Part shown: piece by piece, positions 23,884 to 45,302 of the stretch
How positions within the stretch are numbered: position 1 is the stretch's first letter
Layout: each line of letters starts with the position of its first letter
Source of the DNA: a virus
IMG/VR virus record: IMGVR_UViG_3300018059_000002
Location: 1 to 54,094 of that record
Strand: one strand, 5' to 3'
Length of the DNA: 54,094 nucleotides
Made by a program: the position numbers and the translations under genes
Notes under the pieces: model-generated
What the model was told of the DNA's origin: nothing
Seen by the model: only the letters and a program-made list of their open reading frames with translations
Databases searched by the model: none

Positions 23884-23940
23884 CGTTCAGTGTGGAGCAA
23901 TCCTAACTGACGAGGTCGTCAGGCGTCAAGTGATGCGCGT
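23884..23940 (-). promoter_or_regulatory. Early promoter-operator cassette E1
   Basis: Minus strand: TTGACG (23929-23924), an 18-nt spacer holding the dyad CTGACGACCTCGTCAG (23922-23907), then TAGGAT (23905-23900), then the leader box CTCCACACTGAACG (23897-23884). Confidence 0.55.
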
Positions 23941-24136
23941 CTTGTTTCTCGAACATTATGCCTCCACACTCGCACGGTGCGGGCACACGCATAGGTGCAC
24001 CAAATTGGTAGACTTTACCGCAGCTCATACAGCGCCATCGGACGCTTTTCATCCCTTCGTTGGGTTTTAGAATGCGATCAGGCTCCCCAAATTCACGCAA
24101 TACATCGGCTCGCGTTTTAATCTTCCCACTTACCAT
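23903..24136 (-). CDS. Small Zn-ribbon protein
   Basis: Start trimmed to ATG 24136 (MVSGKIK...); the longer track ORF overlaps the polymerase out of frame. CMSCG...CECGG forms a four-Cys ribbon. The C-terminus PDDLVS is encoded by the E1 dyad. Confidence 0.5.
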   Translation of the reverse strand: MVSGKIKTRADVLREFGEPDRILKPNEGMKSVRWRCMSCGKVYQFGAPMRVPAPCECGGIMFEKQDAHHLTPDDLVS

Positions 24137-25979
24137 AGCGTTGCGCCTCCCATGCATCAGGTACCTTAATTGGCCACGGTTGGCCGTCTTCGCACACCGC
24201 CCACGCGGGCAGCGGGCGCACGCATTCCATGTAGCCGGCGATACTGCCGAACCCGTCAGGCACTTCTGCGACACCCTCGTCGTGAGTGTGCATCACGATC
24301 GGATAGCCTGCACGCTCTAAGCGCAACAAAGAATCGGCTTGTATTTGTCGGCACATGAACGATATGACGTTTTGAGTTTGCACCCCACCATATAAGCTCA
24401 TCCTCACCCAGCCTAGCGCGCCCTTCGTTTGGTTCGAGTTGTTACCCTCATAGGACATTTCGAATTCCCACGGGCTCGCGTAGTTGCGCTGCGAAGGCGT
24501 CAGACGCGGCGCGTGATAGCGAATGTATCCACCCGAAGGCGGCCGGCAATACAGTACATCGTCGTAGACTTGATACAGTACGCCAAGCCGCGATTGTGGG
24601 TTAGAGCTGAAGCATTGACCGGGTTCTAAGATAGCGGAGATGGCGGCTCCCTCCAATCCGTACAGTATTTGCTGTTCGTTGTGTCTGAACTTATTAAGGG
24701 TTTGGCCGCCCCAAAAATTTACGATGTTGGGAATAGCGTCGCGTGTCTTCAACACCACGGCTTTAATTGCATCGTCATCGCCTAGCAGATCGTCAGCGCC
24801 AAAACGTTTCCACCCATTAACCCACGCGCCGAAGTCTGCGGACAACACTGACAGTTTACCTAGTTGCCGGTCATCGTGGTGCTTGCCGTGCTGTTTTCTA
24901 AACGCTTGATACTCTTCGACTGACTTACCCGTCAGTAACGCGGCTTGCGCTTCGTAAATCTTCCCGTGGGTTCTAAACACGTCGATGCGCCATTGTTCAT
25001 TAGCCATGCAAGACGTTGCAACCGCTTGTATGGCGGTGAAGTCCGCAGACAGCAAACGGTGTCCCGCCTTGGCGATGATCATCGAACGCAGGCAGCTTGC
25101 AACCACTTCGAGGGCATCTAACGCGCCGTTGTTCTTTGGGTCGAGCGCCCACGCTGAACCCTCGCCGTATTCATATTCGAGCAGTTCAATAGATCGGCAA
25201 CGAATGATTGCGAGCGCGCGTTCAACTTGCTCGGGCTTTGAAAAAACACCCTTGTACAAGTTGGCCGGCTGCACGCCTCTACCATTCCACAGCGAAGTGT
25301 GTGCGCCGTAATAGGTGTATTGATCGTAAAGCCGCCCCGACGATGTCGTCTGCGATCTAAACGCGTAATACTTTTTACAGCTACCAAACGCGAGGATTTG
25401 CCGGATACGCAACACACGCAACACGTTGCGCGGGTAGTCGGTGCGCTTCAATGCGTCGGCAAGCGTGTCTTCGTCAAGTTCGTAAAGATAAACGCCCTGT
25501 GTGCGCATCCATTCGAGCATTTTTGCAACTTCGGTTGACTTCTGTACCGCGTGGTTTGTTATCTCGCGCAGCTCGCTGTTATAGCGCAACTCGGCTTGTT
25601 CAATGATAACGATGCAATCTTCGACCGCTGCCGTATCGACTTGCATGCCGCGCATGTTGATACGCAAGTCAAGCTTCCATACATCGTGCTCGCGGGGCGT
25701 TAGATCAGGCACACGGGCGCTAACGTGTGCCTCGGTTATGATGTCTTGCTTGTTGTATTCATAGAACCGCGCGAAGTCATCGGCGGCAGTAAGCGGCGTC
25801 CATCGCAACGACTGGTTTGCCTTCGTGGGTTTCTTCGGCATCGTCAGCTTGCGAATTAAATCGCTGCCGGCTTTATCCTTTTGCTGCGATACGTTCAACA
25901 CTGCGCCGAGTTCGCCGAGTGCGCCGGGGTACGCAGATGCGCGAGCCTTCGCGGCAGAACAGTGAGCTTGATCAGTCAT
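24117..25979 (-). CDS. Family A DNA polymerase, C-terminal fragment (ExoIII plus polymerase domain)
   Basis: ExoIII is YNKQD, motif A is SADFTAIQA, motif B is RQLGKLSVLSADFG and motif C is VMHTHDEG. ExoI and ExoII are absent here and are found in ORF 27288..27908. Confidence 0.85.
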   Translation of the reverse strand: MTDQAHCSAAKARASAYPGALGELGAVLNVSQQKDKAGSDLIRKLTMPKKPTKANQSLRWTPLTAADDFARFYEYNKQDIITEAHVSARVPDLTPREHDVWKLDLRINMRGMQVDTAAVEDCIVIIEQAELRYNSELREITNHAVQKSTEVAKMLEWMRTQGVYLYELDEDTLADALKRTDYPRNVLRVLRIRQILAFGSCKKYYAFRSQTTSSGRLYDQYTYYGAHTSLWNGRGVQPANLYKGVFSKPEQVERALAIIRCRSIELLEYEYGEGSAWALDPKNNGALDALEVVASCLRSMIIAKAGHRLLSADFTAIQAVATSCMANEQWRIDVFRTHGKIYEAQAALLTGKSVEEYQAFRKQHGKHHDDRQLGKLSVLSADFGAWVNGWKRFGADDLLGDDDAIKAVVLKTRDAIPNIVNFWGGQTLNKFRHNEQQILYGLEGAAISAILEPGQCFSSNPQSRLGVLYQVYDDVLYCRPPSGGYIRYHAPRLTPSQRNYASPWEFEMSYEGNNSNQTKGALGWVRMSLYGGVQTQNVISFMCRQIQADSLLRLERAGYPIVMHTHDEGVAEVPDGFGSIAGYMECVRPLPAWAVCEDGQPWPIKVPDAWEAQRYGKWED

Positions 25980-26170
25980 GTGTTGTCTGTTGCCTCAAGA
26001 GGTAAGCAGTGCACAACCCAGCGCAGCGCGTATTCGACAGTTCGCGGGATTGGTGATTCCCCTGCTATGTACTTACGCATTGTTCGCTCATTGATCCCTA
26101 TTTCCTTTGCCGAGCCGCGCTGTGACAGTCCAGCGCGGTCCAGTAGCTTCGCAAGCTGGACGGCGGTCAC
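25976..26170 (-). CDS. Small XRE-like helix-turn-helix protein
   Basis: 64 aa. GLSQRGSAKEIGINERTMRKYIAG is a typical HTH. Its stop overlaps the polymerase ATG (ATGA). Confidence 0.6.
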   Translation of the reverse strand: MTAVQLAKLLDRAGLSQRGSAKEIGINERTMRKYIAGESPIPRTVEYALRWVVHCLPLEATDNT

Positions 26171-26439
26171 CGCGGCACCGGTAAATCTGAAAATACTTTA
26201 TCTATCTGTGCCGACGCCGCCTCACGTTCAGCGATATTTGCAAATCCGTCCCCTGGTGAAAAGCTAGGCTCATACAAGCGCGCATCCATGACGGCTGCAT
26301 AGATTGCGCCATCGGCTGTAAAAGTAACTCCTTTCGTGAGCGGATAAACTTTGCCGCCGATGTTTTTGTATACCCGCCACACCCATGCGTGGTGGGAATT
26401 TTTCTCGCACTGCTTAATTTCTATGCAAAGACCCATCAC
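26167..26439 (-). CDS. Hypothetical protein
   Basis: 90-aa ORF that overlaps both neighbouring genes by 4 nt. Confidence 0.55.
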   Translation of the reverse strand: MMGLCIEIKQCEKNSHHAWVWRVYKNIGGKVYPLTKGVTFTADGAIYAAVMDARLYEPSFSPGDGFANIAEREAASAQIDKVFSDLPVPR

Positions 26440-26636
26440 AGCACCGCCTTACGCTTTTTGTCATAAATCACAGTATCGTCATCGTTCAGTATCTGCACGT
26501 AGTCTGCATCTGGATATTCGTCCATGTAATCCTTGACTGCTCGTTTTGCGACCTGCAAGCCATCAACATCTTCTGCATCGATGATGATGTTGCCGTCTGC
26601 ATCTAGCGCGATAATTCTGTAGTAACCCATCTTCAT
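26436..26636 (-). CDS. Hypothetical acidic protein
   Basis: 66-aa ORF with GGGAGA upstream of the ATG. It is the first gene downstream of the promoter at 26664-26693. Confidence 0.55.
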   Translation of the reverse strand: MKMGYYRIIALDADGNIIIDAEDVDGLQVAKRAVKDYMDEYPDADYVQILNDDDTVIYDKKRKAVL

Positions 26637-26663
26637 TCTCCCGTTTGCGTTGTCAATGGGTGT

Positions 26664-26693
26664 ATTAGACCATTAAACCCTATAGGGTGTCAA
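26664..26693 (-). promoter_or_regulatory. Sigma-70-like promoter with CCCTATAGGG palindrome in the spacer
   Basis: Minus strand: TTGACA (26693-26688), an 18-nt spacer, then TCTAAT (26669-26664). The spacer contains the perfect 10-bp palindrome CCCTATAGGG (26678-26687). Confidence 0.5.
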
Positions 26694-26709
26694 GCCCTAT
26701 ACAAGAAAT

Positions 26710-27012
26710 TTATTTAGGGGGCTCCGATCCTGTGGTCTGAGGTAAGCACCGGAGACCAATTTTAGTGGTGCCTCTAGTACCGCCAAGCGATAGACTTTTT
26801 GCAGAATAAAATTGATTTAGCTCACAATTGTGTAGCGCGACATATCCGCCGCCCTCTAATATTGCGCAAGGATACGGCACGCCATCATCGTCTTTGCCTT
26901 CCTCTGCGCAGCCGCTCACGCGATCCACCTCGTGTGATTCACCATAGGCAACCCAGAGAACCATGCCGTAGCTCAGCTCATTATTAAGCGTTTGAATTTC
27001 GTCGTCATTCAT
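26710..27012 (-). CDS. Hypothetical protein, EEGKDDDGVPYPCAI family (paralog of 28057..28446)
   Basis: Start trimmed to ATG 27012 (MNDDEIQTL...). It shares EEGKDDDGVPYPCAI...FYSAK and about 44 nt of near-identical DNA with the 28283-28326 region. Confidence 0.55.
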   Translation of the reverse strand: MNDDEIQTLNNELSYGMVLWVAYGESHEVDRVSGCAEEGKDDDGVPYPCAILEGGGYVALHNCELNQFYSAKSLSLGGTRGTTKIGLRCLPQTTGSEPPK

Positions 27013-27259
27013 TGTCACTACCTCTGTTCTGGAGCGGGGTTCCGGTGATGTGAATGCGCTCAACCATTGCTTGATGCGCACGTATCGAACCCTCGCTGGC
27101 CTCGTCTTGTGCAACGAACTTGCCGCGCTTCTTTGTTGCCTCGTCCCATTCCCAGACGTAGGTTTCTGCATAGCGCGCTTGCACCACCATTGCAGATAAA
27201 TCACGGTCAATTGTGCTGACGACAAAGCCACCAATGTAAGTCACTGCGAGCGAACTCAT
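27005..27259 (-). CDS. Hypothetical protein
   Basis: 84-aa ORF with GGAGG 8 nt upstream of the ATG at 27259. Confidence 0.5.
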   Translation of the reverse strand: MSSLAVTYIGGFVVSTIDRDLSAMVVQARYAETYVWEWDEATKKRGKFVAQDEASEGSIRAHQAMVERIHITGTPLQNRGSDNE

Positions 27260-27287
27260 TTCGTGCCACCTCCGGTTTGGTTAGGTT

Positions 27288-27908
27288 TCATAGAGGCGGC
27301 AGCCCTTGTTCATCGCAATGAAACGGAGGCCAGCCTAACACTGGTACACAATGAACATTCCATACGGTCCATTCAAAGTTAACGTTATGCGCTTCAAGCT
27401 TGCCTCCAGCTTCGACGTGTTCGAGTAGCGTTACCGGGTGCAGTAGGTTCGGGCACTCGCACGGGCACCCGAACCTTACAGGGCAATCGCACGCGTGGTT
27501 AACATCGTACCGTGGGTATTGTTTATAAGTTGTTGAGGGTTCCGGCCGCCACCATTGCACCCCGTTGCCGTCTTTAAGATTGTAAGCGAGCGACAATACC
27601 TCAAAGCTATGATGTTCTACGTAGTTACGCGTGCCCACCGCTTTAAGCCCGCGGTTTTGAGCTGACAGACCCGGCGGCGAATCCCATTTTTGTTCTAGCG
27701 GATTCCACACCAAACCCGCTTCGCTGTATGTTTCAAAATCGAAATCAGGTAACACAGTTGCAAGGCCGATGCCTGCAACAAATTGTGTACCGGCGCGTGC
27801 GTGTCGCCAGTCAACCATTATCGGGTGCCTTAGTAGGTAGCCGCTGTTGCCGCAATCGAAGTTCTTCAAATAGGGATTGCGGGCATTGGCAATATTCGAC
27901 AGCCGCAT
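27288..27908 (-). CDS. Family A DNA polymerase, N-terminal 3'-5' exonuclease fragment (ExoI plus ExoII)
   Basis: 206 aa. ExoI is LPDFDFETYSEAG and ExoII is LEAHNVNFEWTVWN. The ORF ends at a stop (27288) just where intact homologues continue toward ExoIII. Confidence 0.7.
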   Translation of the reverse strand: MRLSNIANARNPYLKNFDCGNSGYLLRHPIMVDWRHARAGTQFVAGIGLATVLPDFDFETYSEAGLVWNPLEQKWDSPPGLSAQNRGLKAVGTRNYVEHHSFEVLSLAYNLKDGNGVQWWRPEPSTTYKQYPRYDVNHACDCPVRFGCPCECPNLLHPVTLLEHVEAGGKLEAHNVNFEWTVWNVHCVPVLGWPPFHCDEQGLPPL

Positions 27909-27968
27909 AGGGGACCGGCGTAACCAATGTCTTTAATGGCAACCAGCATATTCCGCAGTGTGCCTCAC

Positions 27969-28172
27969 TCATAGTGCTGATCCTGATGCCTCAAGAGGTA
28001 GTCCATAGCGTTTACTAAGCTCCCTCGCCAATGCAATCCGTTCTCGGGTAACTCGCTCATGGTCCCTCTGCGTAAAGGATGCGGCTTGAGTGAACGGCCA
28101 TTCTTGATCGGAATACTTCAACTCGGCAATCAACATGCCGACCATAGCCTTTCGTATCTGCTGACGATTCAT
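27969..28172 (-). CDS. Hypothetical protein
   Basis: 67-aa ORF of balanced composition. Its C-terminal LPLEA, and 14 nt (tgcctcaagaggta), are shared with the end of ORF 25976..26170. Confidence 0.45.
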   Translation of the reverse strand: MNRQQIRKAMVGMLIAELKYSDQEWPFTQAASFTQRDHERVTRERIALARELSKRYGLPLEASGSAL

Positions 28173-28446
28173 GCCTCACGCATGACTTTTCTCGTGTGTG
28201 TGTGGTCCGAGATAGTCTCTTGGCTGAATAGAACATGCTCAGTTCGGCGGAATACAGCGCGGCATAGCGACCGTTTGCAAATATCGCGCAAGGGTACGGC
28301 ACACCATCATCGTCTTTGCCTTCTTCCGGATGACCACCAATCCCGACAACTTCGCGCGCCTCAATGCCGCTTATCCAAAAAACCACACCGCGCTTAACTG
28401 CCTGTCTCAACAAGTCGATTTGCTCATCATTCATTGCCGTGCTCAT
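28057..28446 (-). CDS. Hypothetical protein, EEGKDDDGVPYPCAI family (3' end uncertain)
   Basis: The N-terminal roughly 85 aa parallel ORF 26710..27012. The C-terminal roughly 40 aa overlap ORF 27969..28172 out of frame and look like read-through. Confidence 0.45.
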   Translation of the reverse strand: MSTAMNDEQIDLLRQAVKRGVVFWISGIEAREVVGIGGHPEEGKDDDGVPYPCAIFANGRYAALYSAELSMFYSAKRLSRTTHTREKSCVRHESSADTKGYGRHVDCRVEVFRSRMAVHSSRILYAEGP

Positions 28447-28496
28447 GTATAGGATTCAAAGACGCCAAGTCGATAAGTGACAGTAGGAGCAAGACT

Positions 28497-28730
28497 TTAC
28501 TCGTGTTGCGTTAGGCACCACAATGCTAGCAATTCGGCTGCATCCAACACAATGCGAATATCACGTTGTGGGATGCCCGTCGCGCTATTGATCAGTACTA
28601 AAATTGCTTGCCGACTCAACCCCGACGACTTCATGGCTTTAGCAGAAGTGGAAACTTTGCGAATCGAATCGGCCACGCGTTTGAAGTCTTCGCGTGTTGG
28701 CTCCGATAGTTTTTTGATTGCGGTTGCCAT
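28497..28730 (-). CDS. Hypothetical protein
   Basis: 77-aa ORF with GAGGTG upstream of the ATG at 28730. Confidence 0.5.
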   Translation of the reverse strand: MATAIKKLSEPTREDFKRVADSIRKVSTSAKAMKSSGLSRQAILVLINSATGIPQRDIRIVLDAAELLALWCLTQHE

Positions 28731-28750
28731 CTCTTCACCTCTTGCCCATT

Positions 28751-28804
28751 CCCCGCTGCTGTCCGGTCCGAATCGAACACGGGTATCACGGCTCAGCAGC
28801 GGGG
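28751..28804 (-). other. Long-range hairpin between the SSB gene and the next gene
   Basis: ccccgctgctg (28751-28761) pairs perfectly with cagcagcgggg (28794-28804), an 11-bp stem enclosing 32 nt. No U-run follows on either strand. Confidence 0.5.
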
Positions 28805-28814
28805 CGGGACTCAG

Positions 28815-29901: not shown

Positions 29902-31100
29902 TTTGAAAATACCTTGCGTGCAGTGATGGAATTATCGCGCGTCAGCTTCAACGCGGCGGCGGGTCTATGAGCGTAGTGTTTCATCGTTTCCGCGTCAACG
30001 CCGAATTGTATCGCTTGCGTGGGTGTTACAAGTGAATCCTTTTTAGTTTGTGGCTTCCGTAAATCGATGCCGATAAGATCGCCCAAACCGACGACCTCGT
30101 CAACATTAACATCGTCGTAGTATGTTAACCGGGATTGACCGGGGGTCATGTGGAAAAATGAGATGGGTTTACCTTGTCGCATTAGCGCCTCAGCTTGTGC
30201 TGCTAGGCCCGTCTCACGTGCTTCAAGGCGTTTAATGATGTTTTGTACCATCGCTAACTCGGTGCCGATTGCTTCGGGTGGCATCTCTACGATTTCGCCG
30301 GTTGTAGCGAAATCAATAAAAACGCCGGTCGCGTATTGTAACGTTTTACAGACGTGGCGCGCCCTGCAATCAACGCATGAATCATTGGTTGTTGCAACTG
30401 GATCGGAGCCAAGCGCCGCATGCGCAGCATTTGATGCGATGTTCAAATAGTTACGCAGCACATATGCCTGAACGCGCCACCACCTAACAGGGCCGTCGGC
30501 TCGATAGCATCGCGGTTGCACGATACACATCTCTACCCACAAATTAAGGTCTGCGTCATCCAGGTTTAACCGATCCATTACACCTGATGTGTATGAGGTT
30601 GTCTGATAGTTGCCGAACACTTCCACGTAGCGGTGTCCGTATTTGTATTCACCCACACGCAACAGTTTGATTAGGCCGCGCGCAAATAGATCGGGCGATA
30701 TTTCAGGCGGGCAGACTTTATGCGCGAAGCGCGCATCGGGAAAAAATCGCCATGCATCCGGTGTTCCGGCGCAGTGTTCGGGATGTACACGCTTGATAGA
30801 TACGGCGTCCTCAAGGCGCAATGACGAATGGAAACCGCCTATTGCTTCGGCGTACATCGTTGCGCCTGCTACCATATCAACATCCACGGTCCACTGGCGG
30901 CCCCGATACTCCATCTTAAATCCGACAGGCAACGTATGGCCGTACCCGCGAGCGTAATTCAACGCGACCATGTGCGCGAATGTTCCCTCGGCTTCTTCTT
31001 CGGTCTCAGGTAACGGCGGCACTTGTTCTTGCAATTGCACGGAAGCGGGACACTTCACAGTAAGATCAAGAGATGACGGGGCAATACGCGCGTGGCTCAT
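29898..31100 (-). CDS. PD-(D/E)XK / Cas4-like exonuclease (DUF2800-like)
   Basis: Start trimmed to ATG 31100, just after the upstream TAA. The C-terminal half has a Cys cluster (CVDCRARHVC). It sits at the usual DUF2800 position next to DUF2815 and PolA. Confidence 0.6.
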   Translation of the reverse strand: MSHARIAPSSLDLTVKCPASVQLQEQVPPLPETEEEAEGTFAHMVALNYARGYGHTLPVGFKMEYRGRQWTVDVDMVAGATMYAEAIGGFHSSLRLEDAVSIKRVHPEHCAGTPDAWRFFPDARFAHKVCPPEISPDLFARGLIKLLRVGEYKYGHRYVEVFGNYQTTSYTSGVMDRLNLDDADLNLWVEMCIVQPRCYRADGPVRWWRVQAYVLRNYLNIASNAAHAALGSDPVATTNDSCVDCRARHVCKTLQYATGVFIDFATTGEIVEMPPEAIGTELAMVQNIIKRLEARETGLAAQAEALMRQGKPISFFHMTPGQSRLTYYDDVNVDEVVGLGDLIGIDLRKPQTKKDSLVTPTQAIQFGVDAETMKHYAHRPAAALKLTRDNSITARKVFSK

Positions 31101-32480: not shown

Positions 32481-32514
32481 GGCGAAATCTCCAATTTTTG
32501 TGAGTGTTCAACAG

Positions 32515-32557
32515 TTGACGTGGACTGACAGTATCGTCAGACTGACGACCTTGTCAA
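32515..32557. promoter_or_regulatory. Divergent control region with five YTGACR hexamers / two CTGAC-N6-GTCAR dyads
   Basis: The hexamers are TTGACG (32515), CTGACA (32525), CGTCAG (32535), CTGACG (32542) and TGTCAA (32552). A minus-strand promoter reads TTGACA (32557-32552), 18-nt spacer, TACTGT (32533-32528). Confidence 0.5.
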
Positions 32558-34802: not shown

Positions 34803-35308
34803 ACTTGCAAGAATGGGCCGCGCGTTGGAATATACCCGCCGAAGCCTTCCGGGAACTTGTAGCCTGTAGTATTGTTCCGCCGGAGCCTGACGAAGTCGTC
34901 GGAACAAAATCAGAAGCCTACGTACAATCAACTGTACGTCTTGCGGCACCAGGACGTGGTATTTATTTATGGCGTAACCAAGTTGGAGCGGGTATTGTAG
35001 CTAACGCTCGCGACCTATGCCACGAATGCGTACAAAAGGCACGCCGGCCTATTCGTTGGGGCTTAGGAAACGATAGCAAAAAACAAAACGATGTGATGAA
35101 ATCTGCCGACCTAATCGGGATTGAGAAAAAACTAATCACTCCTGACATGGTCGGCAGTTACATCGGAAAGTTCCATTCTGTGGAAACAAAACACGAAGAC
35201 TGGAAGTACTCAGGGACGGCCGAAGAGAATGCGCAGCTAGCTTGGGCGACCTTGATTAACTCACTTGGCGGCGAGGCTAAGATTGTCAAACACGCCTCGT
35301 CACTATAG
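34799..35308 (+). CDS. VRR-NUC domain nuclease
   Basis: Start trimmed to ATG 34799 (ATGA overlap). SEAYVQSTV...WRNQVGAG...SADLIGIE...SVETKHED...AQLAWATLINSLGGEAKIV fits the VRR-NUC PD-(D/E)XK pattern. Confidence 0.65.
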   Translation: MNLQEWAARWNIPAEAFRELVACSIVPPEPDEVVGTKSEAYVQSTVRLAAPGRGIYLWRNQVGAGIVANARDLCHECVQKARRPIRWGLGNDSKKQNDVMKSADLIGIEKKLITPDMVGSYIGKFHSVETKHEDWKYSGTAEENAQLAWATLINSLGGEAKIVKHASSL

Positions 35309-35320
35309 GATCACTAGACT

Positions 35321-35620
35321 ATGACTGTACCTAATAAAACCTCTAAACCCGCCATTCTCAGCGCAGCAATTAAGCTCGCAAGTAAGGTTGGGCTTTTTCA
35401 ATTTTCGCGGGTTGACGTTGCCGCTGAGGCGAATGTAGGCGAATCGACTGTGTCGTATCATTTCGGCACGATGCCCGAGCTACGCACCGCAATCGTGAAG
35501 CATGCAGTCGAGCACGAAATTATGAAAATTCTAGCCGATGCTCGCGCGGGGCGCGAATCCGTGGGCGTGCCTATGAGCGCGACGCTAAGGAAGAAAATCG
35601 CGAAATTCATCGCAGAATAA
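35321..35620 (+). CDS. Stand-alone TetR-N-type HTH DNA-binding protein
   Basis: 99 aa. ILSAAIKLASKVGLFQFSRVDVAAEANVGESTVSYHFGTMPELRTAI matches the TetR_N HTH. At 99 aa it is too short to carry a ligand-binding domain. Confidence 0.6.
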   Translation: MTVPNKTSKPAILSAAIKLASKVGLFQFSRVDVAAEANVGESTVSYHFGTMPELRTAIVKHAVEHEIMKILADARAGRESVGVPMSATLRKKIAKFIAE

Positions 35621-39228: not shown

Positions 39229-39280
39229 ATGGACCTCAGACAGCGGGCATGTGAACCATGTCACATATTTTGCGCGTATC

Positions 39281-39296
39281 CTGACGAGGTCGTCAA
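39281..39296. promoter_or_regulatory. Degenerate dyad copy (CTGACGAGGTCGTCAA)
   Basis: A 15/16 match to the cassette dyad, in the ORF-poor gap 39129-39567. The flanking -35 and -10 hexamers are poor. Confidence 0.25.
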
Positions 39297-39372
39297 CTCT
39301 TCATTTTAGGTTTGGTTGGGTAGCCTGCGACGAGAGATTCGCGCAACGCCTTTCGGCAATAGCTAGGGCCAC

Positions 39373-39495: not shown

Positions 39496-39567
39496 AACTT
39501 TGCCTTCGACATGAATTGTGAACCCGACCACAATTTTGTGTCAGGCTGACAACGCCGTCAATACAAA

Positions 39568-39762
39568 TTAACCTCTTAAACGCTGTTTATCGATTATTGT
39601 TGAGTAACCTTTTTCGCGTTCGTTTAGCCAATCAACGGTTGATATATAGTCTGCCGTAGCATAAACGATACGACGCGTAGTGCGATGTAATTTAACATCG
39701 AGGATCATTGGATAGCCGCCATCAGACTGTGGGCCTATGATTAGTTTATAACGCTCAGACAT
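39568..39762 (-). CDS. Hypothetical protein
   Basis: 64-aa ORF of balanced composition, tightly spaced after the upstream gene. Confidence 0.5.
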   Translation of the reverse strand: MSERYKLIIGPQSDGGYPMILDVKLHRTTRRIVYATADYISTVDWLNEREKGYSTIIDKQRLRG

Positions 39763-39764
39763 AA

Positions 39765-40247
39765 TTAAAACCCCATTCTCAAACCAAGTTGATAGTTGCC
39801 GCGCACCGCGTTAGCTGCATCCAAGATTGTGAGGGTTTGCCATGTGCGGCACACCCAACGCGGTGCGCGCTCATCTAACATATTCGTGACGAACGCGTGA
39901 CCATATGCGGTACCCATATACCACACTGCGACTTGACCTGTCGTAGGGTGATTAGGCAGCATCCAGCTTGACTCACTATAGCGCTCCGGCTGGTTAGCGA
40001 TTTGCAACGTTTGGAGACCATCGACCGCATGGGTGACTTGATATGCGACCTCTAGCTGGCGATTTTCGGTTGACCACTGCCGGTCGAACTGCACGCAACC
40101 CTGCATCATCAACAAGACCAACGGCAGAATGATTGCGATCACTACAAACGAACCATATCGCATGTCGATAAATAGAAGCACAAAAAGCAGCATTGCAATA
40201 AATTGACCGGGGTGCGCGGCGAAGTAGATTGAGATGACGTTAAACAT
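39765..40247 (-). CDS. Multi-pass membrane protein
   Basis: Start trimmed to ATG 40247 (TAATG overlap). There are at least three hydrophobic segments (ISIYFAAHPGQFIAMLLFVLLFI and FVVIAIILPLVLLMM). Confidence 0.55.
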   Translation of the reverse strand: MFNVISIYFAAHPGQFIAMLLFVLLFIDMRYGSFVVIAIILPLVLLMMQGCVQFDRQWSTENRQLEVAYQVTHAVDGLQTLQIANQPERYSESSWMLPNHPTTGQVAVWYMGTAYGHAFVTNMLDERAPRWVCRTWQTLTILDAANAVRGNYQLGLRMGF

Positions 40248-40591
40248 TACGGTGATCCTCGGCATGATGTAGGGTAAAGACGACTTACGGCTTCCCAAAA
40301 TGCTAAGGCGGCCCTATCGACATCGCCGTTAATATTTATTTTGCCGTCGGGGTGAATCACTACACGCGGTTTGCCATGTGGGCTATCGCCGTAAATAATG
40401 ATATCGCCGGCAACCGCCGAGACGGATAGAACCGTAGTTAATCTTTCATCTTGCGGGATTGTTAAACGTTTTGCACTCGTAACGACCTCGTCAGCGTGCG
40501 TCTGCTCCCCGAACAGCAACACGCCCACAGCGAAACATAAGAAGCCGAGATTTTCAGCTTTCTGCCGAATTGTTTGTCGGCGGCGCTTCAT
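40247..40591 (-). CDS. Signal-anchored/exported protein
   Basis: 114 aa. The N-terminus MKRRRQTIRQKAENLGFLCFAVGVLLFG is basic followed by a hydrophobic stretch. Confidence 0.55.
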   Translation of the reverse strand: MKRRRQTIRQKAENLGFLCFAVGVLLFGEQTHADEVVTSAKRLTIPQDERLTTVLSVSAVAGDIIIYGDSPHGKPRVVIHPDGKININGDVDRAALAFWEAVSRLYPTSCRGSP

Positions 40592-40731
40592 GTTTTTGTG
40601 ACTTCTTTAACAACGAAACCATCATCTAAGCAGTACTTGATGAACGCGGCGCACTCTTTCCACGTAGTAAACCTATTACGGCTGCCGCTGCCGTAATAAA
40701 CGTGATACACAAATGTTTTACGCTTGCTCAT
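40588..40731 (-). CDS. Candidate 47-aa protein
   Basis: Not in the ORF track. It encodes MSKRKTFVYHVYYGSGSRNRFTTWKECAAFIKYCLDDGFVVKEVTKT and has ATGA overlaps at both ends. Confidence 0.35.
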   Translation of the reverse strand: MSKRKTFVYHVYYGSGSRNRFTTWKECAAFIKYCLDDGFVVKEVTKT

Positions 40732-40814
40732 ACAAATAGCTTCCCTTCGTTACAATAATCGGCAACAACAATAGCAAGAGCGATCAAGGCGGCAAGGGTG
40801 GTGAAGGTCATCAT
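40728..40814 (-). CDS. Candidate 28-aa hydrophobic peptide
   Basis: Not in the ORF track. It encodes MMTFTTLAALIALAIVVADYCNEGKLFV, with GGAG upstream. It is the first ORF after cassette E5. Confidence 0.25.
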   Translation of the reverse strand: MMTFTTLAALIALAIVVADYCNEGKLFV

Positions 40815-40850
40815 GGCGGCGGCTCCTAAGTGGTTACAATGTGGCTCTAC

Positions 40851-40892
40851 TGTATACCTGACGACCTCGTCAGTCTAGCGACTTACGTCACA
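40851..40892 (-). promoter_or_regulatory. Early promoter-operator cassette E5 (weak -35)
   Basis: Minus strand: TGTGACGT box (40892-40885), perfect dyad (40873-40858), then TATACA (40856-40851). The -35 position reads GCTAGA. Confidence 0.4.
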
Positions 40893-41271
40893 ATTTCATC
40901 GTGTTGGGTATCGGACCTTTGAACTCGGGCCACTCTGAGGTATCACCTTTGCTCCAAGCTCGCAAAAACCACACGGCTTCCCCCGGATCGAAGGGGTCCG
41001 ATAATTTTAAAGCGTATTCGATTGCAGCGTTGTACTGCTGGCGCATAGCTTCTACGGCTTCATTGCGCAGGTCTGATTGAATAGGATCACCTTGCATTAC
41101 ATCGCGTACCGCACAACCCGAACGCACAAGCGAGGGAGTAAGAACGGGTTTTTTTGGGGGAAGTTGTTCGGCATACACTTCGGGTATATCTTCCCACGCG
41201 CCAAGCTCGTGATTGAAGTGTTGTAAACGAGCCGAAGCTAGAGTCATTAACATACGAATTTCATATGCCAT
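40888..41271 (-). CDS. Hypothetical protein
   Basis: 127-aa ORF. Its stop TGA lies inside the TGTGACG box of cassette E5. Confidence 0.55.
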   Translation of the reverse strand: MAYEIRMLMTLASARLQHFNHELGAWEDIPEVYAEQLPPKKPVLTPSLVRSGCAVRDVMQGDPIQSDLRNEAVEAMRQQYNAAIEYALKLSDPFDPGEAVWFLRAWSKGDTSEWPEFKGPIPNTMKL

Positions 41272-41446
41272 AAATTTTGTCCCATAGGTAAAAGGTGACC
41301 GCCGAATTTTTCACGGCATGGTGTAATGTGTACCGATATAAACGCCAGTTTTCCAGCTTCCAGCACCCAATCCGCACATATACGGCGGCAAGTTCTACGT
41401 CAGTAGGATTAAACTTTTGAGGGAATCGAATCTCTGCGAGTCTCAT
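41261..41446 (-). CDS. Hypothetical protein
   Basis: 61-aa ORF whose ATG overlaps the upstream gene end by 4 nt. Confidence 0.45.
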   Translation of the reverse strand: MRLAEIRFPQKFNPTDVELAAVYVRIGCWKLENWRLYRYTLHHAVKNSAVTFYLWDKIYGI

Positions 41447-41664
41447 AGCGGCCCCTTGCGTGCGGCAAAAATTTTATCCGACAGTTTGCGAGTCGCCGCG
41501 CCATGATATCGGCACAATTCACCTTGTGTACTCGTAGTCCAGATACTTAGGATTTCGCCGGATTCTAAAGCATAGGCAACACCAGCTTTGTACATTGCGA
41601 CGGCTTGTTTGCTCGTCCAGCGCCCCGGCAGCGGGCCGAGGCGTGACGTTATGGCGTAAATCAT
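41443..41664 (-). CDS. Hypothetical protein
   Basis: 73-aa ORF with GAAGG upstream. It is the first gene after cassette E2. Confidence 0.55.
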   Translation of the reverse strand: MIYAITSRLGPLPGRWTSKQAVAMYKAGVAYALESGEILSIWTTSTQGELCRYHGAATRKLSDKIFAARKGPL

Positions 41665-41680
41665 AATGCAGCCTTCGTTG

Positions 41681-41741
41681 CGTTCAGTGTGGAGTTATCT
41701 TAACTGACGAGGTCGTCAGGATTCAAGTGCACTGCGTCACA
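41681..41741 (-). promoter_or_regulatory. Early promoter-operator cassette E2
   Basis: Minus strand: TGTGACGC (41741-41734), TTGAAT (41726-41721), an 18-nt spacer with the dyad (41719-41704), TAAGAT (41702-41697), then the leader CTCCACACTGAACG (41694-41681). Confidence 0.6.
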
Positions 41742-41900
41742 GTATTTGCAGTCGCAGCCCTTGCGGCATACCACACTGTTAATCTGCAAGCGGTCAGTAT
41801 CCGCAAATACGTCGCGCGGGTAACGCCGAGGCGCATGCGGATCATCAGGCGTCAAACCTTTCATCCCCAATGATTCAAAATCGCACATAGGACCGCTCAC
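41700..41900 (-). CDS. Small Cys-rich protein
   Basis: 66 aa with CRKGCDCKYC. The C-terminal PDDLVS and the TAA stop are encoded by the E2 dyad and -10 hexamer. Confidence 0.5.
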   Translation of the reverse strand: MSGPMCDFESLGMKGLTPDDPHAPRRYPRDVFADTDRLQINSVVCRKGCDCKYCDAVHLNPDDLVS

Positions 41901-42117
41901 ACACTAGCATTATCTCGCGGGTATCAAGAGGCACACATCCGCTGGCTTTCACCGCCTTCGTGATTGTCGCGATAGGCGTGCCGGCGCAAATCGCTTTGGT
42001 AACGTAAGGCGTTGCCTCCCACGTCTCGCGCATCTGCCGGCATTCTTGAGGGACCACCGGTAGTATTAACATCGTGTCGGTACTGCTAACGTGCATCCAA
42101 ATAATTAACGCCCACAT
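41875..42117 (-). CDS. Hypothetical protein
   Basis: 80-aa ORF that overlaps both neighbouring ORFs by 13 to 26 nt, so the start is uncertain. Confidence 0.4.
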   Translation of the reverse strand: MWALIIWMHVSSTDTMLILPVVPQECRQMRETWEATPYVTKAICAGTPIATITKAVKASGCVPLDTREIMLVCERSYVRF

Positions 42118-42329
42118 GCGAGTAAATCCTTATATCGTAGAGGTTGAGTAAGTTTGTTCATAGGTGAGTAGTCGAAACTGTGGGTACGAGGCGAGCCCGC
42201 GACCAACGTTTCAGGTTCGTCAGTGTACGCTTGAATCCTACCGTCGATCACGACGGCCCACAGTTTCATCGTTTGCGAATCGTGGACGCGGCGCGGTTGG
42301 ACTTGGAAAAAGCGTATTGCGGTGTTCAT
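42105..42329 (-). CDS. Hypothetical protein
   Basis: 74-aa ORF. Its ATG lies only 8 nt downstream of the E7 -10 hexamer, which suggests a near-leaderless mRNA. Confidence 0.5.
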   Translation of the reverse strand: MNTAIRFFQVQPRRVHDSQTMKLWAVVIDGRIQAYTDEPETLVAGSPRTHSFDYSPMNKLTQPLRYKDLLACGR

Positions 42330-42337
42330 GGGGCTGT

Positions 42338-42380
42338 ATCGTACTGACGGTGTCGTCAGGTATCCGCGTGATGCGTCACA
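42338..42380 (-). promoter_or_regulatory. Early promoter-operator cassette E7 (variant dyad)
   Basis: Minus strand: TGTGACGC (42380-42373), the dyad CTGACGACACCGTCAG (42359-42344), then TACGAT (42343-42338). Confidence 0.4.
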
Positions 42381-42482
42381 GTTTGAATGTTTAGGGTTGA
42401 TGACGCTTGCGACTGCGCGAATTCTTCGCCGCTAGCCTCACGAGCGCCCCGCAGTGGTTCAAATTCACAAGCATCATCAACC

Positions 42483-42522
42483 ATAAACACACGGGGGCTG
42501 GGGGAACCAAAACCCCCGTGTG
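42483..42522 (-). terminator. Intrinsic terminator after the sigma/partner operon
   Basis: Minus strand: CACACGGGGG (42522-42513), a 15-nt loop, CCCCCGTGTG (42497-42488), then TTTAT. It begins 15 nt after the stop at 42537. Confidence 0.6.
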
Positions 42523-42536
42523 ACACTGTAACGGAA

Positions 42537-43040
42537 TTATAATTTGTCGATTGTTGCACCTCCTTTTTCGTTAATAAAAATTCCGACATTTTCCATATCT
42601 CGTTGGCTTTTCTTTACTCTCTTACGCGCCGCAATCGCCAAGTTAGCTACCCGTTTTAAATGGCCGGAGAGTATTAATGCTTGATCGGGGTCAAGCGCTA
42701 TGTGGCGTACAGGAGCCTGCCAATCAATCAGCACTTGCATTGCTCTACTCACACCGACTTGATATTTGAGTTCGGGCGTTGCTGACAGTTCCGATGGCTT
42801 TGCAGATGTCGTATCATTGACTATTGCTTTTAATCCGCCATCTACGCCGGGTACACCTTCGTGATACAATTTGTCGCGAGCGCGTTGGGCTTGCTCCGGG
42901 GTGATTTCAGATAACCTCAATCCTTGTGCTTTAAGTAATGCGACACGATGCATTGGCTTCTTAGGGCACATTGGACACCACGAATCGGAGAATTCACCGC
43001 AATCGGTGTGTTTGATAGGACACGCATAGATAATCATCAT
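42537..43040 (-). CDS. Cys-rich protein translationally coupled to the sigma factor (anti-sigma candidate)
   Basis: 167 aa. Its ATG overlaps the sigma gene stop (ATGA). The N-terminus is CPIKHTDCGEFSDSWCPMCP. Function inferred only from the gene pairing. Confidence 0.3.
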   Translation of the reverse strand: MMIIYACPIKHTDCGEFSDSWCPMCPKKPMHRVALLKAQGLRLSEITPEQAQRARDKLYHEGVPGVDGGLKAIVNDTTSAKPSELSATPELKYQVGVSRAMQVLIDWQAPVRHIALDPDQALILSGHLKRVANLAIAARKRVKKSQRDMENVGIFINEKGGATIDKL

Positions 43041-43534
43041 TTGGCCTTTTTAAGAGTCTTGTGTACTTCACGTAATCCGAGCGCGATATGATGTTCTACC
43101 GTCTTTTCGCTTAAATGGTACTTCTTAGCGAGCTGTCGATAGGAAGCGCCAAAAAAGACACGTTGCGAAAACACCGCTTTACATCGTGGAGGTAGTAAAT
43201 TAATTGCTTTACGCAGCGCTTCGGTTTGTTCTAAACGGATCAACAATTCATCGGCCGGCTCGTTGGCCGCTAACATTTCCGCAAAGTCATCGCAACGATC
43301 AAACTGTACTAACCTATCGTGTCGACAGGAATCCAAAGCCATGCGTTTCGCAACTGTGAATAGGAAAGCCCGAGGTATTTCTAACTTATCCATATTCACT
43401 AGCGTTTTTATAAATGCCTCTTGTGCAATGTCGCTGGCAGTTTCATCAGAATGCACGAAACGCTTGATGTAACGACACAAGTCATTGTAGCTACTGACGA
43501 ACAAGTTAGTTACTGAGTCTTTGATAGCCATCAC
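43037..43534 (-). CDS. ECF-type (FecI-like) sigma-70 family factor
   Basis: 165 aa. Region 2 reads DIAQEAFIKTL...PRAFLFTVAKRMALDSCRHDR and region 4 reads LPPRCKAVFSQRVFFGASYRQLAKKYHLSEKTVEHHIALGLREV. Confidence 0.75.
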   Translation of the reverse strand: MMAIKDSVTNLFVSSYNDLCRYIKRFVHSDETASDIAQEAFIKTLVNMDKLEIPRAFLFTVAKRMALDSCRHDRLVQFDRCDDFAEMLAANEPADELLIRLEQTEALRKAINLLPPRCKAVFSQRVFFGASYRQLAKKYHLSEKTVEHHIALGLREVHKTLKKAK

Positions 43535-43552
43535 ACCACCTCGTTTTAAAGA

Positions 43553-43786
43553 TCAGGCGATATTCCCAAACCGGTGCTCCGATTTCTTCCGCTTCACTGT
43601 AGGTTGGGGCATACGCATCCACTCAATAACGTTGAGCCACTCCACACTATCGCAACCGACGGTATCGAAGTGCTCGCCGTGTCTATCAGTATGTGTACGT
43701 TTCGCGTGTCCAACTTCTTTACCATCGGACACCAAGACCTCAGCGCCATAAGGAGGCACACCTTTCTTAATATTTGTCCATCTCAT
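43553..43786 (-). CDS. Hypothetical protein (DUF551-like?)
   Basis: 77 aa. W-x-N-x4-PP-x3-VLV at the N-terminus loosely recalls DUF551. Confidence 0.35.
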   Translation of the reverse strand: MRWTNIKKGVPPYGAEVLVSDGKEVGHAKRTHTDRHGEHFDTVGCDSVEWLNVIEWMRMPQPTVKRKKSEHRFGNIA

Positions 43787-44586
43787 AGTAAGCCTGCTTT
43801 CGTTAGTGATTGAACCAAGGGTGACTTAGGGCGTTTGATGTGTCGCAGCGGTTCCCATAGCTGATTGGCGTCACGCGCCTCTTGCTCGATGATACCGGTG
43901 CGGCTACGACGTTCGGGCCGCGCCGGGCGTGTTATACGTCCGTGTGGGCACATGATTGTTTCAAACCCGCGACGAAAACCGCGCGTTGTATAAGGACGGT
44001 CCTCAATCGCTTCAATCACAGCATCAAAACCTTTCTTGCCGCCGATACGCGCAGTGTCACCCACTTTCCAATCACGCGACTCTAAGTCTTCAACGCGATA
44101 CGCCGGCGCTTTGTTGTCGAAAATTTTCGCGGCCCACTCTTGCATTTGTTGCTTGAGCATTAATGAGTGGCGCGCCGTAGCTTCCGATTTGTAAATTTCC
44201 GTTTTCACAGCACGCAATTGATACTCTTCGGAGCATTCGGCAAACGGTACGATCTTCATTTCGCTTGCGGTATAAGTGCGGTTACCGCGCTTTACAACAG
44301 CCTTAACATACTCGCCGTTCCATGCTTCAAGCGGCGTGCACGTGCCGGCTTTCAACTCTTCGACTTTGGCGGTTGCAGCTTGAGCGCGTTCAAAATATCT
44401 TGAAATCACCCCGTCGGTAAGCGCACGTGAGATGTGCAGTGAAGGTTCGCTGGAACCGGGGCAAGTACCGTTAAAATAGCCATGTACCACATCATAGCCG
44501 TGCTTCGCGATCAACCCGGTTTGTGTGTCAATCGCCTGTACACGCAAGCAACATTGACAATGTCCTCTGTGCGTGTGAGTGCTCAT
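43783..44586 (-). CDS. Hypothetical protein
   Basis: 267-aa ORF. It begins MSTHTH, using the same 16 nt as the upstream gene start. Confidence 0.6.
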   Translation of the reverse strand: MSTHTHRGHCQCCLRVQAIDTQTGLIAKHGYDVVHGYFNGTCPGSSEPSLHISRALTDGVISRYFERAQAATAKVEELKAGTCTPLEAWNGEYVKAVVKRGNRTYTASEMKIVPFAECSEEYQLRAVKTEIYKSEATARHSLMLKQQMQEWAAKIFDNKAPAYRVEDLESRDWKVGDTARIGGKKGFDAVIEAIEDRPYTTRGFRRGFETIMCPHGRITRPARPERRSRTGIIEQEARDANQLWEPLRHIKRPKSPLVQSLTKAGLL

Positions 44587-44819
44587 TGTTTACTATTTCC
44601 GTCAGTTTCGATTAAAGGGGTTGCAACACAACGACAATTGAAATGCTGCGGCGGTCTCGGCCGATTTCTTTCGGCAATCGCCTTTAGCAAACGGCGGCGA
44701 TATAGAAAATCAGGTTCCAACCCAAACCAACGACGAGGCAAGCCAAAAGCCTCCCCAATGCGCGTTAGATAAACATCTTTGGCTTTCCGTGTGTACCCTT
44801 CGCGCGTGTGAGTGCTCAT
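44583..44819 (-). CDS. Hypothetical protein
   Basis: 78-aa ORF that begins MSTHTR, with ATGA overlaps at both ends. Confidence 0.55.
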   Translation of the reverse strand: MSTHTREGYTRKAKDVYLTRIGEAFGLPRRWFGLEPDFLYRRRLLKAIAERNRPRPPQHFNCRCVATPLIETDGNSKQ

Positions 44820-44974
44820 GCTTGAATCACTCCATAAAGGCTATTATGGCCTTTGTGCCAAATCTCAACATTGTTACGCAACTCGTAGCAGCAACCGTTC
44901 CTGTTGAGATGAGCAAGAAAGGATTCTACAGATTCAATAACTTGCACAAGCATCCCGGTAGTAATAACTTGCAT
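44816..44974 (-). CDS. Candidate 52-aa protein
   Basis: Not in the ORF track. It encodes MQVITTGMLVQVIESVESFLAHLNRNGCCYELRNNVEIWHKGHNSLYGVIQA. It is the first ORF after cassette E3, and its stop overlaps the next ATG. Confidence 0.4.
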   Translation of the reverse strand: MQVITTGMLVQVIESVESFLAHLNRNGCCYELRNNVEIWHKGHNSLYGVIQA

Positions 44975-44990
44975 GGTGCAGCCCTCGTTG

Positions 44991-45052
44991 CGTTTCAGTG
45001 TGGAGCTATCTTAGCCTGACGAGGTCGTCAGTGTAAAGTGACTTGCGTCACA
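44991..45052 (-). promoter_or_regulatory. Early promoter-operator cassette E3
   Basis: Minus strand: TGTGACGCAAGTCACT (45052-45037), TTTACA (45037-45032), an 18-nt spacer with the dyad (45031-45016), TAAGAT (45013-45008), then the leader CTCCACACTGAAACG (45005-44991). Confidence 0.6.
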
Positions 45053-45228
45053 ATTTCTACTAACTGGCCATAATCGTTAGTCACCCATTTAGTTTTAGGA
45101 AAACCAACACAGCCGCCGCGCCACTCTTGCAAATAAGAGAACCACGTAAATACCCAAATCTCGCTTGTATGGGCTGCGAGGTATTCAAATAGGTACAAAC
45201 GACGGCCGGTAAAAAAACGCATTTTCAT
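45028..45228 (-). CDS. Hypothetical protein
   Basis: The track ORF starts at 45258, directly abutting the E4 -10 hexamer. I prefer ATG 45228 (MKMRFF...), which has AAAGG upstream. Confidence 0.45.
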   Translation of the reverse strand: MKMRFFTGRRLYLFEYLAAHTSEIWVFTWFSYLQEWRGGCVGFPKTKWVTNDYGQLVEIVTQVTLH

Positions 45229-45242
45229 AATGTCGACCTTTT

Positions 45243-45302
45243 CGTTCAGTGTGTTCATACTATACTGACGACCTCGTCAGGATACAAGAGGACCCCGTCA
45301 CA
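45243..45302 (-). promoter_or_regulatory. Early promoter-operator cassette E4
   Basis: Minus strand: TGTGACGG (45302-45295), TTGTAT (45287-45282), a 17-nt spacer with the dyad (45280-45265), TATAGT (45264-45259), then the leader CACACTGAACG (45253-45243). Confidence 0.6.

Follow-up and report, generated by a model that had tools for sequence, protein, structure and literature searches.

Why does a single 16-bp dyad recur in front of one gene after another in a phage genome, and which protein would read it? We addressed this question for the IMG/VR virus record IMGVR_UViG_3300018059_000002, analysed from position 1 to position 54,094 (the whole of this 54,094-nucleotide stretch is hereafter called the window). 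Our analysis suggests that the dyad is a repressor operator embedded in sigma-70-type promoter modules, which are predicted to start the early and replication transcription units of the phage, and that the best candidate for the protein that binds it is a 99-aa TetR-like helix-turn-helix (HTH) protein encoded at 35321-35620 on the plus strand. The cassettes around the dyad had been described in a first-pass annotation of the same DNA, parts of which stand and parts of which are revised below.

All five exact copies of the 16-mer CTGACGASSTCGTCAG lie where they had originally been placed (23907-23922, 40858-40873, 41704-41719, 45016-45031 and 45265-45280), with 0.00 copies expected from 100 shuffles. 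The more permissive pattern CTGAC-N6-GTCAG occurs nine times in the window versus 0.02 times in shuffles, and 21 sites with up to three mismatches to the 16-mer were found versus 0.67 expected; the CTGAC-N6-GTCAG matches at 24920 and 47628 are intragenic and have no promoter context. For comparison, we used eight related phages, designated A to H, and two fragments, which were found via the 16-mer, the primase and the TetR-like protein and which show 66-77% nucleotide identity and GC contents of 49% to 61%. Relative to transcription, the dyad is found both ways round, with CC or with GG at its centre, and where the arms differ they are altered together, as in the symmetric variant CTGACGG-SS-CCGTCAG of phage E and the TGACA-N4-TGTCA form of the Acinetobacter phage Scuro. 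Because the centre flips and the changes found in relatives are symmetric, the dyad appears to behave as a two-fold symmetric protein-binding site, in agreement with the proposal of the first-pass annotation that a protein recognizes it.

Further near-dyads lie within genes (30088-30103, 34887-34902, 22379-22394, 40479-40494, 11107-11122 and 2533-2548), above the shuffle expectation; phages B and C also have the near-dyad that lies at 30088 in the DUF2800 gene. These could be internal promoters, weak operators or a by-product of the codon run GAC-GAG-GTC-GTC (Asp-Glu-Val-Val).

The dyad occurs in two architectures. In class W, it fills the spacer of a predicted promoter: TGTGA is followed by 11-17 nt that include a variable -35 hexamer, then by CTGACG-N4-CGTCAG, 0-3 nt and TAnnnT. 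Downstream comes either an A/C-rich conserved leader (CCACACTGAACGCAACGA-GG) with a ribosome-binding site (RBS) and an ATG, or a leaderless ATG 6-8 nt past the -10 hexamer, with no RBS. Class W cassettes are present in all the relatives, and the window copies (45265, 45016, 42344, 41704, 40858 and 23907) are all on the minus strand; their common layout had been recognized correctly, and the coordinates of every element were verified. Cassette E6 (45226..45302), located directly downstream of an intrinsic terminator (45307-45328), comprises TGTGA at 45298-45302, a -35-like TTGTAT, the dyad at 45265-45280, the -10 hexamer TATAGT at 45259-45264, the leader and an ATG at 45228. In E4 (44972..45052), the CRP-like site TGTGACGCAAGTCACT (45037-45052) adjoins the -35 hexamer TTTACA (45032-45037), the dyad (45016-45031) and the -10 hexamer TAAGAT (45008-45013), and the leader CCACACTGAAACGCAACGAGGG leads to an ATG at 44974. 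The leaderless cassette E7 (42327..42380) carries TGTGA at 42376-42380, the dyad variant CTGACGACACCGTCAG at 42344-42359 and TACGAT at 42338-42343, with an ATG at 42329, 8 nt past the -10 hexamer and without an RBS; in phages B, C, E, F and H, too, the orthologous gene starts behind a cassette built in this way. E3 (41662..41741) has TGTGA at 41737-41741, TTGAAT at 41721-41726, the dyad at 41704-41719, TAAGAT at 41697-41702 and an ATG at 41664, whereas E5 (40812..40892), the orthologue of which lies at L045:15263 in phage B, has TGTGA at 40888-40892, the dyad at 40858-40873, TACAGT at 40849-40854 (offset 3) and the ATG of a 28-aa ORF at 40814. Finally, E1 (23865..23929) precedes a UvrD-like helicase gene and consists of TTGACG at 23924-23929, the dyad at 23907-23922, TAGGAT at 23900-23905 and an ATG at 23867. 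The originally proposed -10 hexamers all hold except for the TATACA of E5, which the comparison with relatives replaces by TACAGT. Of the upstream box, the TGTGA part is confirmed in five of the six cassettes, all but E1; the full octamer TGTGACGC is present in three of the six and is not enriched on its own.

Several features point to these modules being promoters. Each of the five exact dyads has a TAnnnT hexamer 0-3 nt further on (TAGGAT, TACAGT, TAAGAT, TAAGAT and TATAGT), beyond which a gene starts, as the first-pass annotation had claimed. The -35 hexamers are good in E1, E3, E4 and E6, with 17-18-nt spacers, and poor in E5 and E7 (GCTAGA, GGATAC) and in many cassettes of the relatives, including CTAGA-type hexamers in phages C, D and E. 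In six phages, a 74-aa gene shared as an orthologue has a leaderless start, with an ATG 6-8 nt past the hexamer and without an RBS, and in phage F this start reads TATAAT-gaagtc-ATG. Such spacing is the geometry of a leaderless mRNA and, together with that at 51154, lends indirect support to predicted transcription starts 5-9 nt past TAnnnT. In addition, the counterparts of E6 in phages C, D and L176 directly follow intrinsic terminators. We infer from this architecture that the cassettes are sigma-70-type promoter modules that would start the early and replication transcription units; the regulon is phage-wide in the sense originally suggested, in that the dyads cover both the early and the replication operons.

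A number of genes seem to have leaderless or near-leaderless starts, conserved across relatives: those beginning at 42329, 51154 and 35321, and their counterparts, have an ATG 6-9 nt past the -10 hexamer and lack a Shine-Dalgarno sequence.

In the second architecture, class J, the left arm of the dyad, TTGAC(G/A), itself provides a near-consensus -35 hexamer, which is found in all promoters of the class, and the -10 hexamer lies 7-8 nt past the dyad. The window has four copies, of which those at 39281, 39546 and 32542 read on the minus strand and the one at 51118 reads on the plus strand. The dyads at 39281, 32542 and 51118 had been listed as CTGAC-N6-GTCAG variants; in fact, they are members of this second architecture rather than weak cassette copies, and class J was overlooked altogether, as were the leaderless genes and the presence of the same dyad in cultured phages (Jedunavirus and CP-T1, with the TGACA variant in Scuro). 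At 39250..39296 (minus strand), the dyad TTGACGACCTCGTCAG (39281-39296) supplies the -35 hexamer for a CAAAAT at 39267-39272, and a perfect TGTGA-N6-TCACA (39250-39265) overlaps the predicted start site; promoters of this type, together with the downstream TGTGA-N6-TCACA, are kept in phages B (L045:13781) and H and in L175. The neighbouring copy (39517..39561, minus strand) combines the dyad-like TTGACGGCGTTGTCAG (39546-39561) with CAAAAT at 39533-39538 and the CRP-like TGTGGTCGGGTTCACA at 39517-39532, so that perfect or near-perfect TGTGA-N6-TCACA sites lie on the predicted starts of the class J promoters at both 39.3 and 39.5 kb, and these are conserved in relatives. After the portal gene (51118..51156, plus strand), the dyad TTGACGAGGTCGTCAG (51118-51133) gives the -35 hexamer of a promoter with TAGGGT at 51142-51147 and a leaderless ATG at 51154, 6 nt past the -10 hexamer, an arrangement that recurs in L176. 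The replication module contains a divergent control region (32499..32557, both strands), in which tandem operators (32525-32540 and 32542-32557) are common to two predicted promoters: on the plus strand, TGTGA at 32499-32503, TTGACG at 32515-32520 and CAGACT at 32538-32543, and on the minus strand, TTGACA at 32552-32557 and TACTGT at 32528-32533. These tandem dyads are kept in phages B, D and H.

The TGTGA box raises the additional question of whether a second factor acts at class W cassettes. Among 29 candidate cassettes from eight phages, two or three of which are false positives of the relaxed search pattern, the distance from TGTGA to the dyad (11-17 nt) is anticorrelated with that from the dyad to the -10 hexamer (0-3 nt; r = -0.70). 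Therefore, the sum is fixed, with TGTGA held 31-34 nt from the -10 hexamer (mode 32-33; permutation p = 4e-5), and it is the box and the -10 hexamer that appear to be positioned relative to each other, with the dyad free to slide between them. The centre of the TGTGA-N6-TCACA-type site falls at -40.5 to -43.5 as reckoned from the predicted -10 hexamer rather than from a mapped start, and the right half-site keeps C16 and C18, which mirror the G positions of TGTGA. With at most one mismatch, TGTGA-N6-TCACA is found eight times in the window versus 1.3 times expected. The box is thus most likely, judging from its position and composition, where a host activator of the CRP family would bind in class II position and offset the weak -35 hexamers. 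The likeness of TGTGA-N6-TCACT to CRP/FNR sites had been noted in the first-pass annotation, and the class II distance from the -10 hexamer strengthens it. No CRP/FNR-like protein is encoded in the phage ORF sets scanned.

The window ends in a 120-bp direct overlap (1-120 and 53975-54094) and, on this basis, is a circularly closed assembly of ~53,974 bp, representing the complete ~54-kb genome of a phage. Its structural genes (sheath, baseplate, portal and terminase) are those of a myovirus, and its replication module encodes a UvrD-like helicase, a family A DNA polymerase, a gp2.5-like single-stranded DNA-binding protein, the DUF2800 protein, an SNF2-type helicase and a primase-polymerase. 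No integrase, recombinase, MerR gene or lysogeny module was found in any ORF set scanned, and the gene content of this uncultured phage suggests the virulent type. Near-identity DNA searches revealed no close relatives among GenBank phages, and the major capsid protein shows no more than 51% identity to that of any GenBank phage; the IMG/VR contig 3300005844_000028, which is ~68% identical to the window, represents a different phage.

The cassettes, whose layout recurs in at least eight related phages of ~52-55 kb, are 80-94% identical even where the flanks fail to align, and the E4 cassette is 94% identical to that of phage B, whereas the downstream genes are unrelated (52 aa in the window versus 112 aa in phages B and C, with no tblastn hit). 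This gene swapping between relatives is what suggests mobility, and in this respect the cassettes resemble modular promoter cassettes; a stem-loop hairpin is present upstream of only some of them. The first-pass annotation had suggested scanning relatives for the 16-mer and had considered that it might be common in host DNA, like a repetitive extragenic palindromic (REP) element. The only IMG/VR contigs with multiple copies of the exact 16-mer are relatives of ~52-54 kb, and the relaxed cassette pattern gives scattered, roughly chance-level hits in 185,579 bacterial and archaeal genomes, one per stretch and in unrelated taxa apart from one overlapping pair on both strands. A REP-like host repeat was rejected on these grounds. 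The relaxed pattern is also too loose for any inference about the host. The exception among the bacterial hits is a ~130-bp unrelated repeat containing TGTGAGTGAGCGGCAAGG-CTGACGCCGGCGTCAG, present on four contigs (L059, L089, L092 and L101) of the Planctomyces sp. metagenome-assembled genome GL74_DN_concoct_38_sub; it has no other similarity to the phage.

Which protein, then, would bind the dyad? The first-pass annotation had left the regulator without a name and listed three HTH candidates, of which the product of 35321-35620 stands, as a TetR-type HTH protein encoded in every relative; the search for the regulator is thereby narrowed to one specific protein, for which dyad binding is predicted. 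The other two candidates were rejected: neither 25976-26170, which encodes an XRE-type HTH protein, nor 28497-28730, for which the domain scan returned no HTH hit, has a homologue in the compared stretches of the relatives, which span the region in phage B. The 99-aa product scores 29.6 bits against the Pfam family TetR_N (cut-off 24), its sequence hits in the PDB are TetR-family proteins, and its AlphaFold2 (AF2) model, with six helices and a predicted local distance difference test (pLDDT) value of 84, gives exclusively TetR-family proteins as top Foldseek hits, with E-values of ~1e-2. All 29 homologues found are 95-115 aa long, and the protein has no C-terminal ligand-binding and dimerisation domain (helices 4-9; TetR proteins span ~190-220 aa). 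It is accordingly predicted, from its sequence and modelled fold, to be a TetR-like HTH protein rather than a full member of the TetR family. Its gene (region 35283..35620) has a dyad-free promoter of its own, TTGTCA at 35283-35288 and TAGGAT at 35306-35311 separated by a 17-nt spacer, which ends 9 nt before the ATG, giving a near-leaderless start. The 99-aa protein is the only recognizable sequence-specific DNA-binding protein conserved in all relatives. Escherichia coli RutR, a TetR-family protein, binds TTGACCAnnTGGTCAA, a 16-bp 7-2-7 palindrome (PMC2475637). The phage dyad shares 10 of the 14 specified positions of this consensus and differs at positions 1/16 (C/G versus T/A) and 6/11. Because its gene co-occurs with the dyads, and given the precedent of RutR, the 99-aa protein is the best candidate dyad binder.

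The co-occurrence extends to cultured phages. Counting sites as TGAC(G/A)-N4-(C/T)GTCA, with a shuffle expectation of ~0.15 per genome, we found 12 in the window, 11 in Klebsiella phage JD001 (Jedunavirus), five in Acinetobacter phage Scuro (in the form TTGACA-N4-TGTCAA) and two in Shewanella phage SppYZU01, one of them at a promoter; in all four, the TetR-like gene is next to the primase gene. Vibrio phage CP-T1, which also has the gene, carries one site in the 16 kb examined and four with the looser TGAC-N6-GTCA, and none were found in Aeromonas phage 56, where the gene is missing. With at most one core mismatch, JD001 has at least 12 TTGACG-N4-CGTCA(A/G) promoter sites, all of class J and located before small genes; one of these is at the promoter of its own TetR gene, and a Scuro site likewise precedes the TetR gene of that phage. 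Literature searches found no published description of the dyad sites, including those of JD001, Scuro and CP-T1.

Taken together, these observations are compatible with the following circuit. Host sigma-70 polymerase would start transcription at the cassettes, probably with the help of an activator of the CRP family bound at TGTGA. The 99-aa protein would be made both from its own operator-free promoter and as part of the operator-controlled rightward replication operon, and a dimer of it would bind the dyad operator at approximately -30 to -14, covering the class W spacer. As it accumulated, the protein would block RNA polymerase at the operator promoters of both architectures, resulting in a feedback shut-off of early and replication transcription. 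The repressive sign is suggested by the overlap of the dyad with core promoter elements, especially in class J, where the operator covers the near-consensus -35 hexamer of promoters expected to be strong unaided. The TGTGA-N6-TCACA sites over the starts of two class J promoters would act in the opposite sense to those of class W and repress. We hold this combination of a repressor dimer, transcriptional shut-off and a CRP box to be somewhat more probable than its negation. A broader version, in which a virulent myovirus clade of ~70 uncultured genomes gates its early programme on host nutrition, with CRP activating the cassettes and repressing the second promoter set, with a ligand-free half-size TetR protein that forms dimers in a novel manner imposing the shut-off and with the same operator-regulator pair serving as the so far unrecognized master switch of early genes in the therapeutic Klebsiella phages of Jedunavirus and in CP-T1, is considerably more speculative, and we put it forward tentatively.

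Several points weigh against this circuit. The protein is half the expected size (99 aa versus about 200) and has no dimerisation domain, so that dimer formation is unexplained. The dyad core is near-invariant while the TetR-like proteins are only 30-50% identical, and covariation between recognition helix and operator could not be shown, the core barely varying. In the clade of the window, the promoter of the TetR-like gene itself is without a dyad. Oceanospirillum phage PD0307 encodes a TetR-like protein elsewhere in its genome and has no sites. Since the half-site resembles the -35 consensus TTGACA, part of its recurrence in class J promoters could be due to a good -35 hexamer, and not an operator, having been selected. 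As regards the activator, many cassettes have a CRP-like box with a weak right half, E1 has no box, and the presence of CRP in the host of this phage is assumed. The information content of the -10 hexamer is partly circular, the cassette search having demanded A2 and T6 in it.

A different sign of regulation would follow if the dyad were bound by a phage activator taking over from -35 recognition, as T4 MotA does or as in the MerR family; the protein would then switch the cassettes on, as delayed-early or middle promoters. The poor -35 hexamers of many cassettes fit this possibility, as does the dyad being the best conserved element of the cassette. The first-pass annotation had raised the MerR-style version, which we rejected, the spacers being 17-18 nt long rather than the 19-20 nt of MerR promoters and no MerR-family gene having been found; no MotA-like gene was detected in the ORFs scanned either. 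More generally, the dyad slides by 0-3 nt relative to the -10 hexamer, a leeway incompatible with an activator of strict geometry, and in class J, as in JD001, Scuro and CP-T1, it overlaps a near-consensus -35 hexamer, where no activator is needed and occupancy should block the polymerase. An activator at the dyad therefore seems unlikely.

If anything less likely is that a host protein, for instance a RutR-like TetR factor or a global regulator, binds the dyad while the phage TetR-like protein has other targets. The two position pairs noted above are the only ones at which the dyad departs from the RutR consensus, and the same core persists across host genera even though the TetR-like proteins have diverged strongly. 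Yet the hosts span Klebsiella, Vibrio, Acinetobacter and Shewanella as well as those of phages with GC contents of 49-61%, and no single conserved host factor of this specificity is known; moreover, the dyads go with the phage gene, being absent from the gene-less phage 56, and in JD001 and Scuro a dyad lies at the promoter of the TetR-like gene, as autoregulation would give.

We consider it improbable that the dyad works as a nucleic-acid hairpin, whether as an RNA processing or termination signal, an N4-type hairpin promoter or a recombination hot spot. It can indeed fold into a stem of 6 bp closed by a 4-nt loop (centroid fold, ~-8.7 kcal/mol), the surrounding 36-nt stretches have folding energies of -9.2 to -9.9 kcal/mol (z-scores from -1.8 to -3.3), the symmetric changes in relatives preserve pairing, and the same cassette precedes unrelated genes in different phages. 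The -10 hexamer lies directly downstream, however, which places the dyad outside the cassette's own transcript. A terminator or RNA element was rejected because the stem is not followed by a U-tract, unlike that of the terminator at 45307-45328, and matches no Rfam family, and an N4-type promoter was rejected because the phage encodes neither a giant virion RNA polymerase nor any other RNA polymerase; a recombination role would be compatible with the operator model and would not replace it.

The idea that the cassettes are promoters of the phage extracytoplasmic function (ECF) sigma factor encoded at 43037-43531 (minus strand), with GTCAC as the -35 element and the CGTC of the dyad, which resembles the -10 element of ECF promoters, as the -10 element, draws on the location of this gene in a cassette-driven operon and on its clear domain matches (Sigma70_r2, 1.4e-9; Sigma70_r4_2, 8.9e-11), but it is very improbable and was rejected, because the gene is missing from phages B and C, where its neighbours are adjacent and the same cassettes carry identical dyads, and because the leaderless ATG positions fit TAnnnT rather than CGTC as the -10 element. 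The sigma gene, which the first-pass annotation had overlooked and which proves irrelevant to the cassettes, is an accessory insertion absent from B and C, and a related-locus search with it found nothing.

Several other features of the genome lie outside the operator model. A perfect 60-nt inverted repeat (46483-46542 and 46622-46681) with a 79-nt AT-rich spacer separates the leftward early operon from the small terminase gene, and phage B has a different, nested inverted repeat at its place; the element at 46483-46681 could serve as an origin of replication or as a packaging site, or could be a segment that inverts. A 267-aa early protein (43783-44586, minus strand) is kept in about 70 related contigs, and the invariant residues H4, H6, H9, C10, C13, H29 and C42 of its N-terminus suggest a zinc site. 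Its AF2 model (pLDDT 88.6) has no significant match in the PDB, and we rejected it as a known DNA binder because a confident model yielded no fold match. In the late region, GIY-YIG and NUMOD3 domains identify one ORF product as a homing endonuclease; the ORF is probably 19255-19755 (minus strand; 166 aa), which runs opposite to its neighbours.

If the repressor model is correct, it would provide a testable circuit, consisting of one operator, one 99-aa repressor and possibly host CRP, for a widespread yet unstudied phage group that includes the Jedunavirus phages being developed against Klebsiella pneumoniae. A minimal TetR-type DNA binder without a ligand domain and its 16-bp operator would also be of use as synthetic-biology parts, and the reuse of promoter-operator-leader modules before interchangeable early genes bears on how early regions evolve.

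Each component of the proposed circuit is known separately: phage regulons with repeated operators, TetR operators within promoters and class II CRP promoters. What is new is their combination in a clade of virulent-type phages, the half-size TetR candidate and the link to Jedunavirus, Scuro and CP-T1. One close parallel is provided by the cultured phages JD001, Scuro and CP-T1 themselves, which share the dyad core at many promoters, the short primase-adjacent TetR-like gene and the replication module; they use class J only, whereas the spacer cassette with the TGTGA box is restricted to the clade of the window. With RutR- and tetO-type repression, the phage system would share a TetR-family HTH and a 16-bp 7-2-7 operator placed in the core promoter, as tetO is in tet and PLtetO. 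The phage protein is half the size and lacks a ligand domain, so that it is not expected to respond to an inducer, and its predicted targets are about ten phage promoters rather than one divergent gene pair. The TGTGA box resembles that of class II CRP-dependent promoters such as galP1 and melR in its TGTGA-N6-TCAC-like sequence centred at about -41.5 to -42.5 (range -40.5 to -43.5), in overlapping a weak -35 hexamer and in the concentration of information on the CRP-contacted G and C positions; it differs in an often degenerate right half-site, in the putative repressor operator directly downstream and in its absence from a cultured relative, JD001. As modules, the cassettes recall the promoter early stem-loops (PeSLs) of T4-type phages, which are also short conserved early-promoter units, some of them following a terminator hairpin, that flank small variable genes and adjoin non-homologous genes in related phages. 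The cassettes have another promoter sequence, in which a putative operator and an activator-like box are embedded. Finally, many dispersed copies of one operator are found in the C1 operators of P1, the gp71 stoperators of mycobacteriophage L5 and the conserved inverted repeats of phiC31, where, as proposed here, a single phage repressor acts at near-identical sites spread over the early region near promoters. The sites of P1 and L5 are asymmetric, whereas those described here are dyads, and P1, L5 and phiC31 are temperate phages, the repressor of which keeps lysogeny, whereas in the phage of the window the function would be a temporal shut-off during lytic growth.

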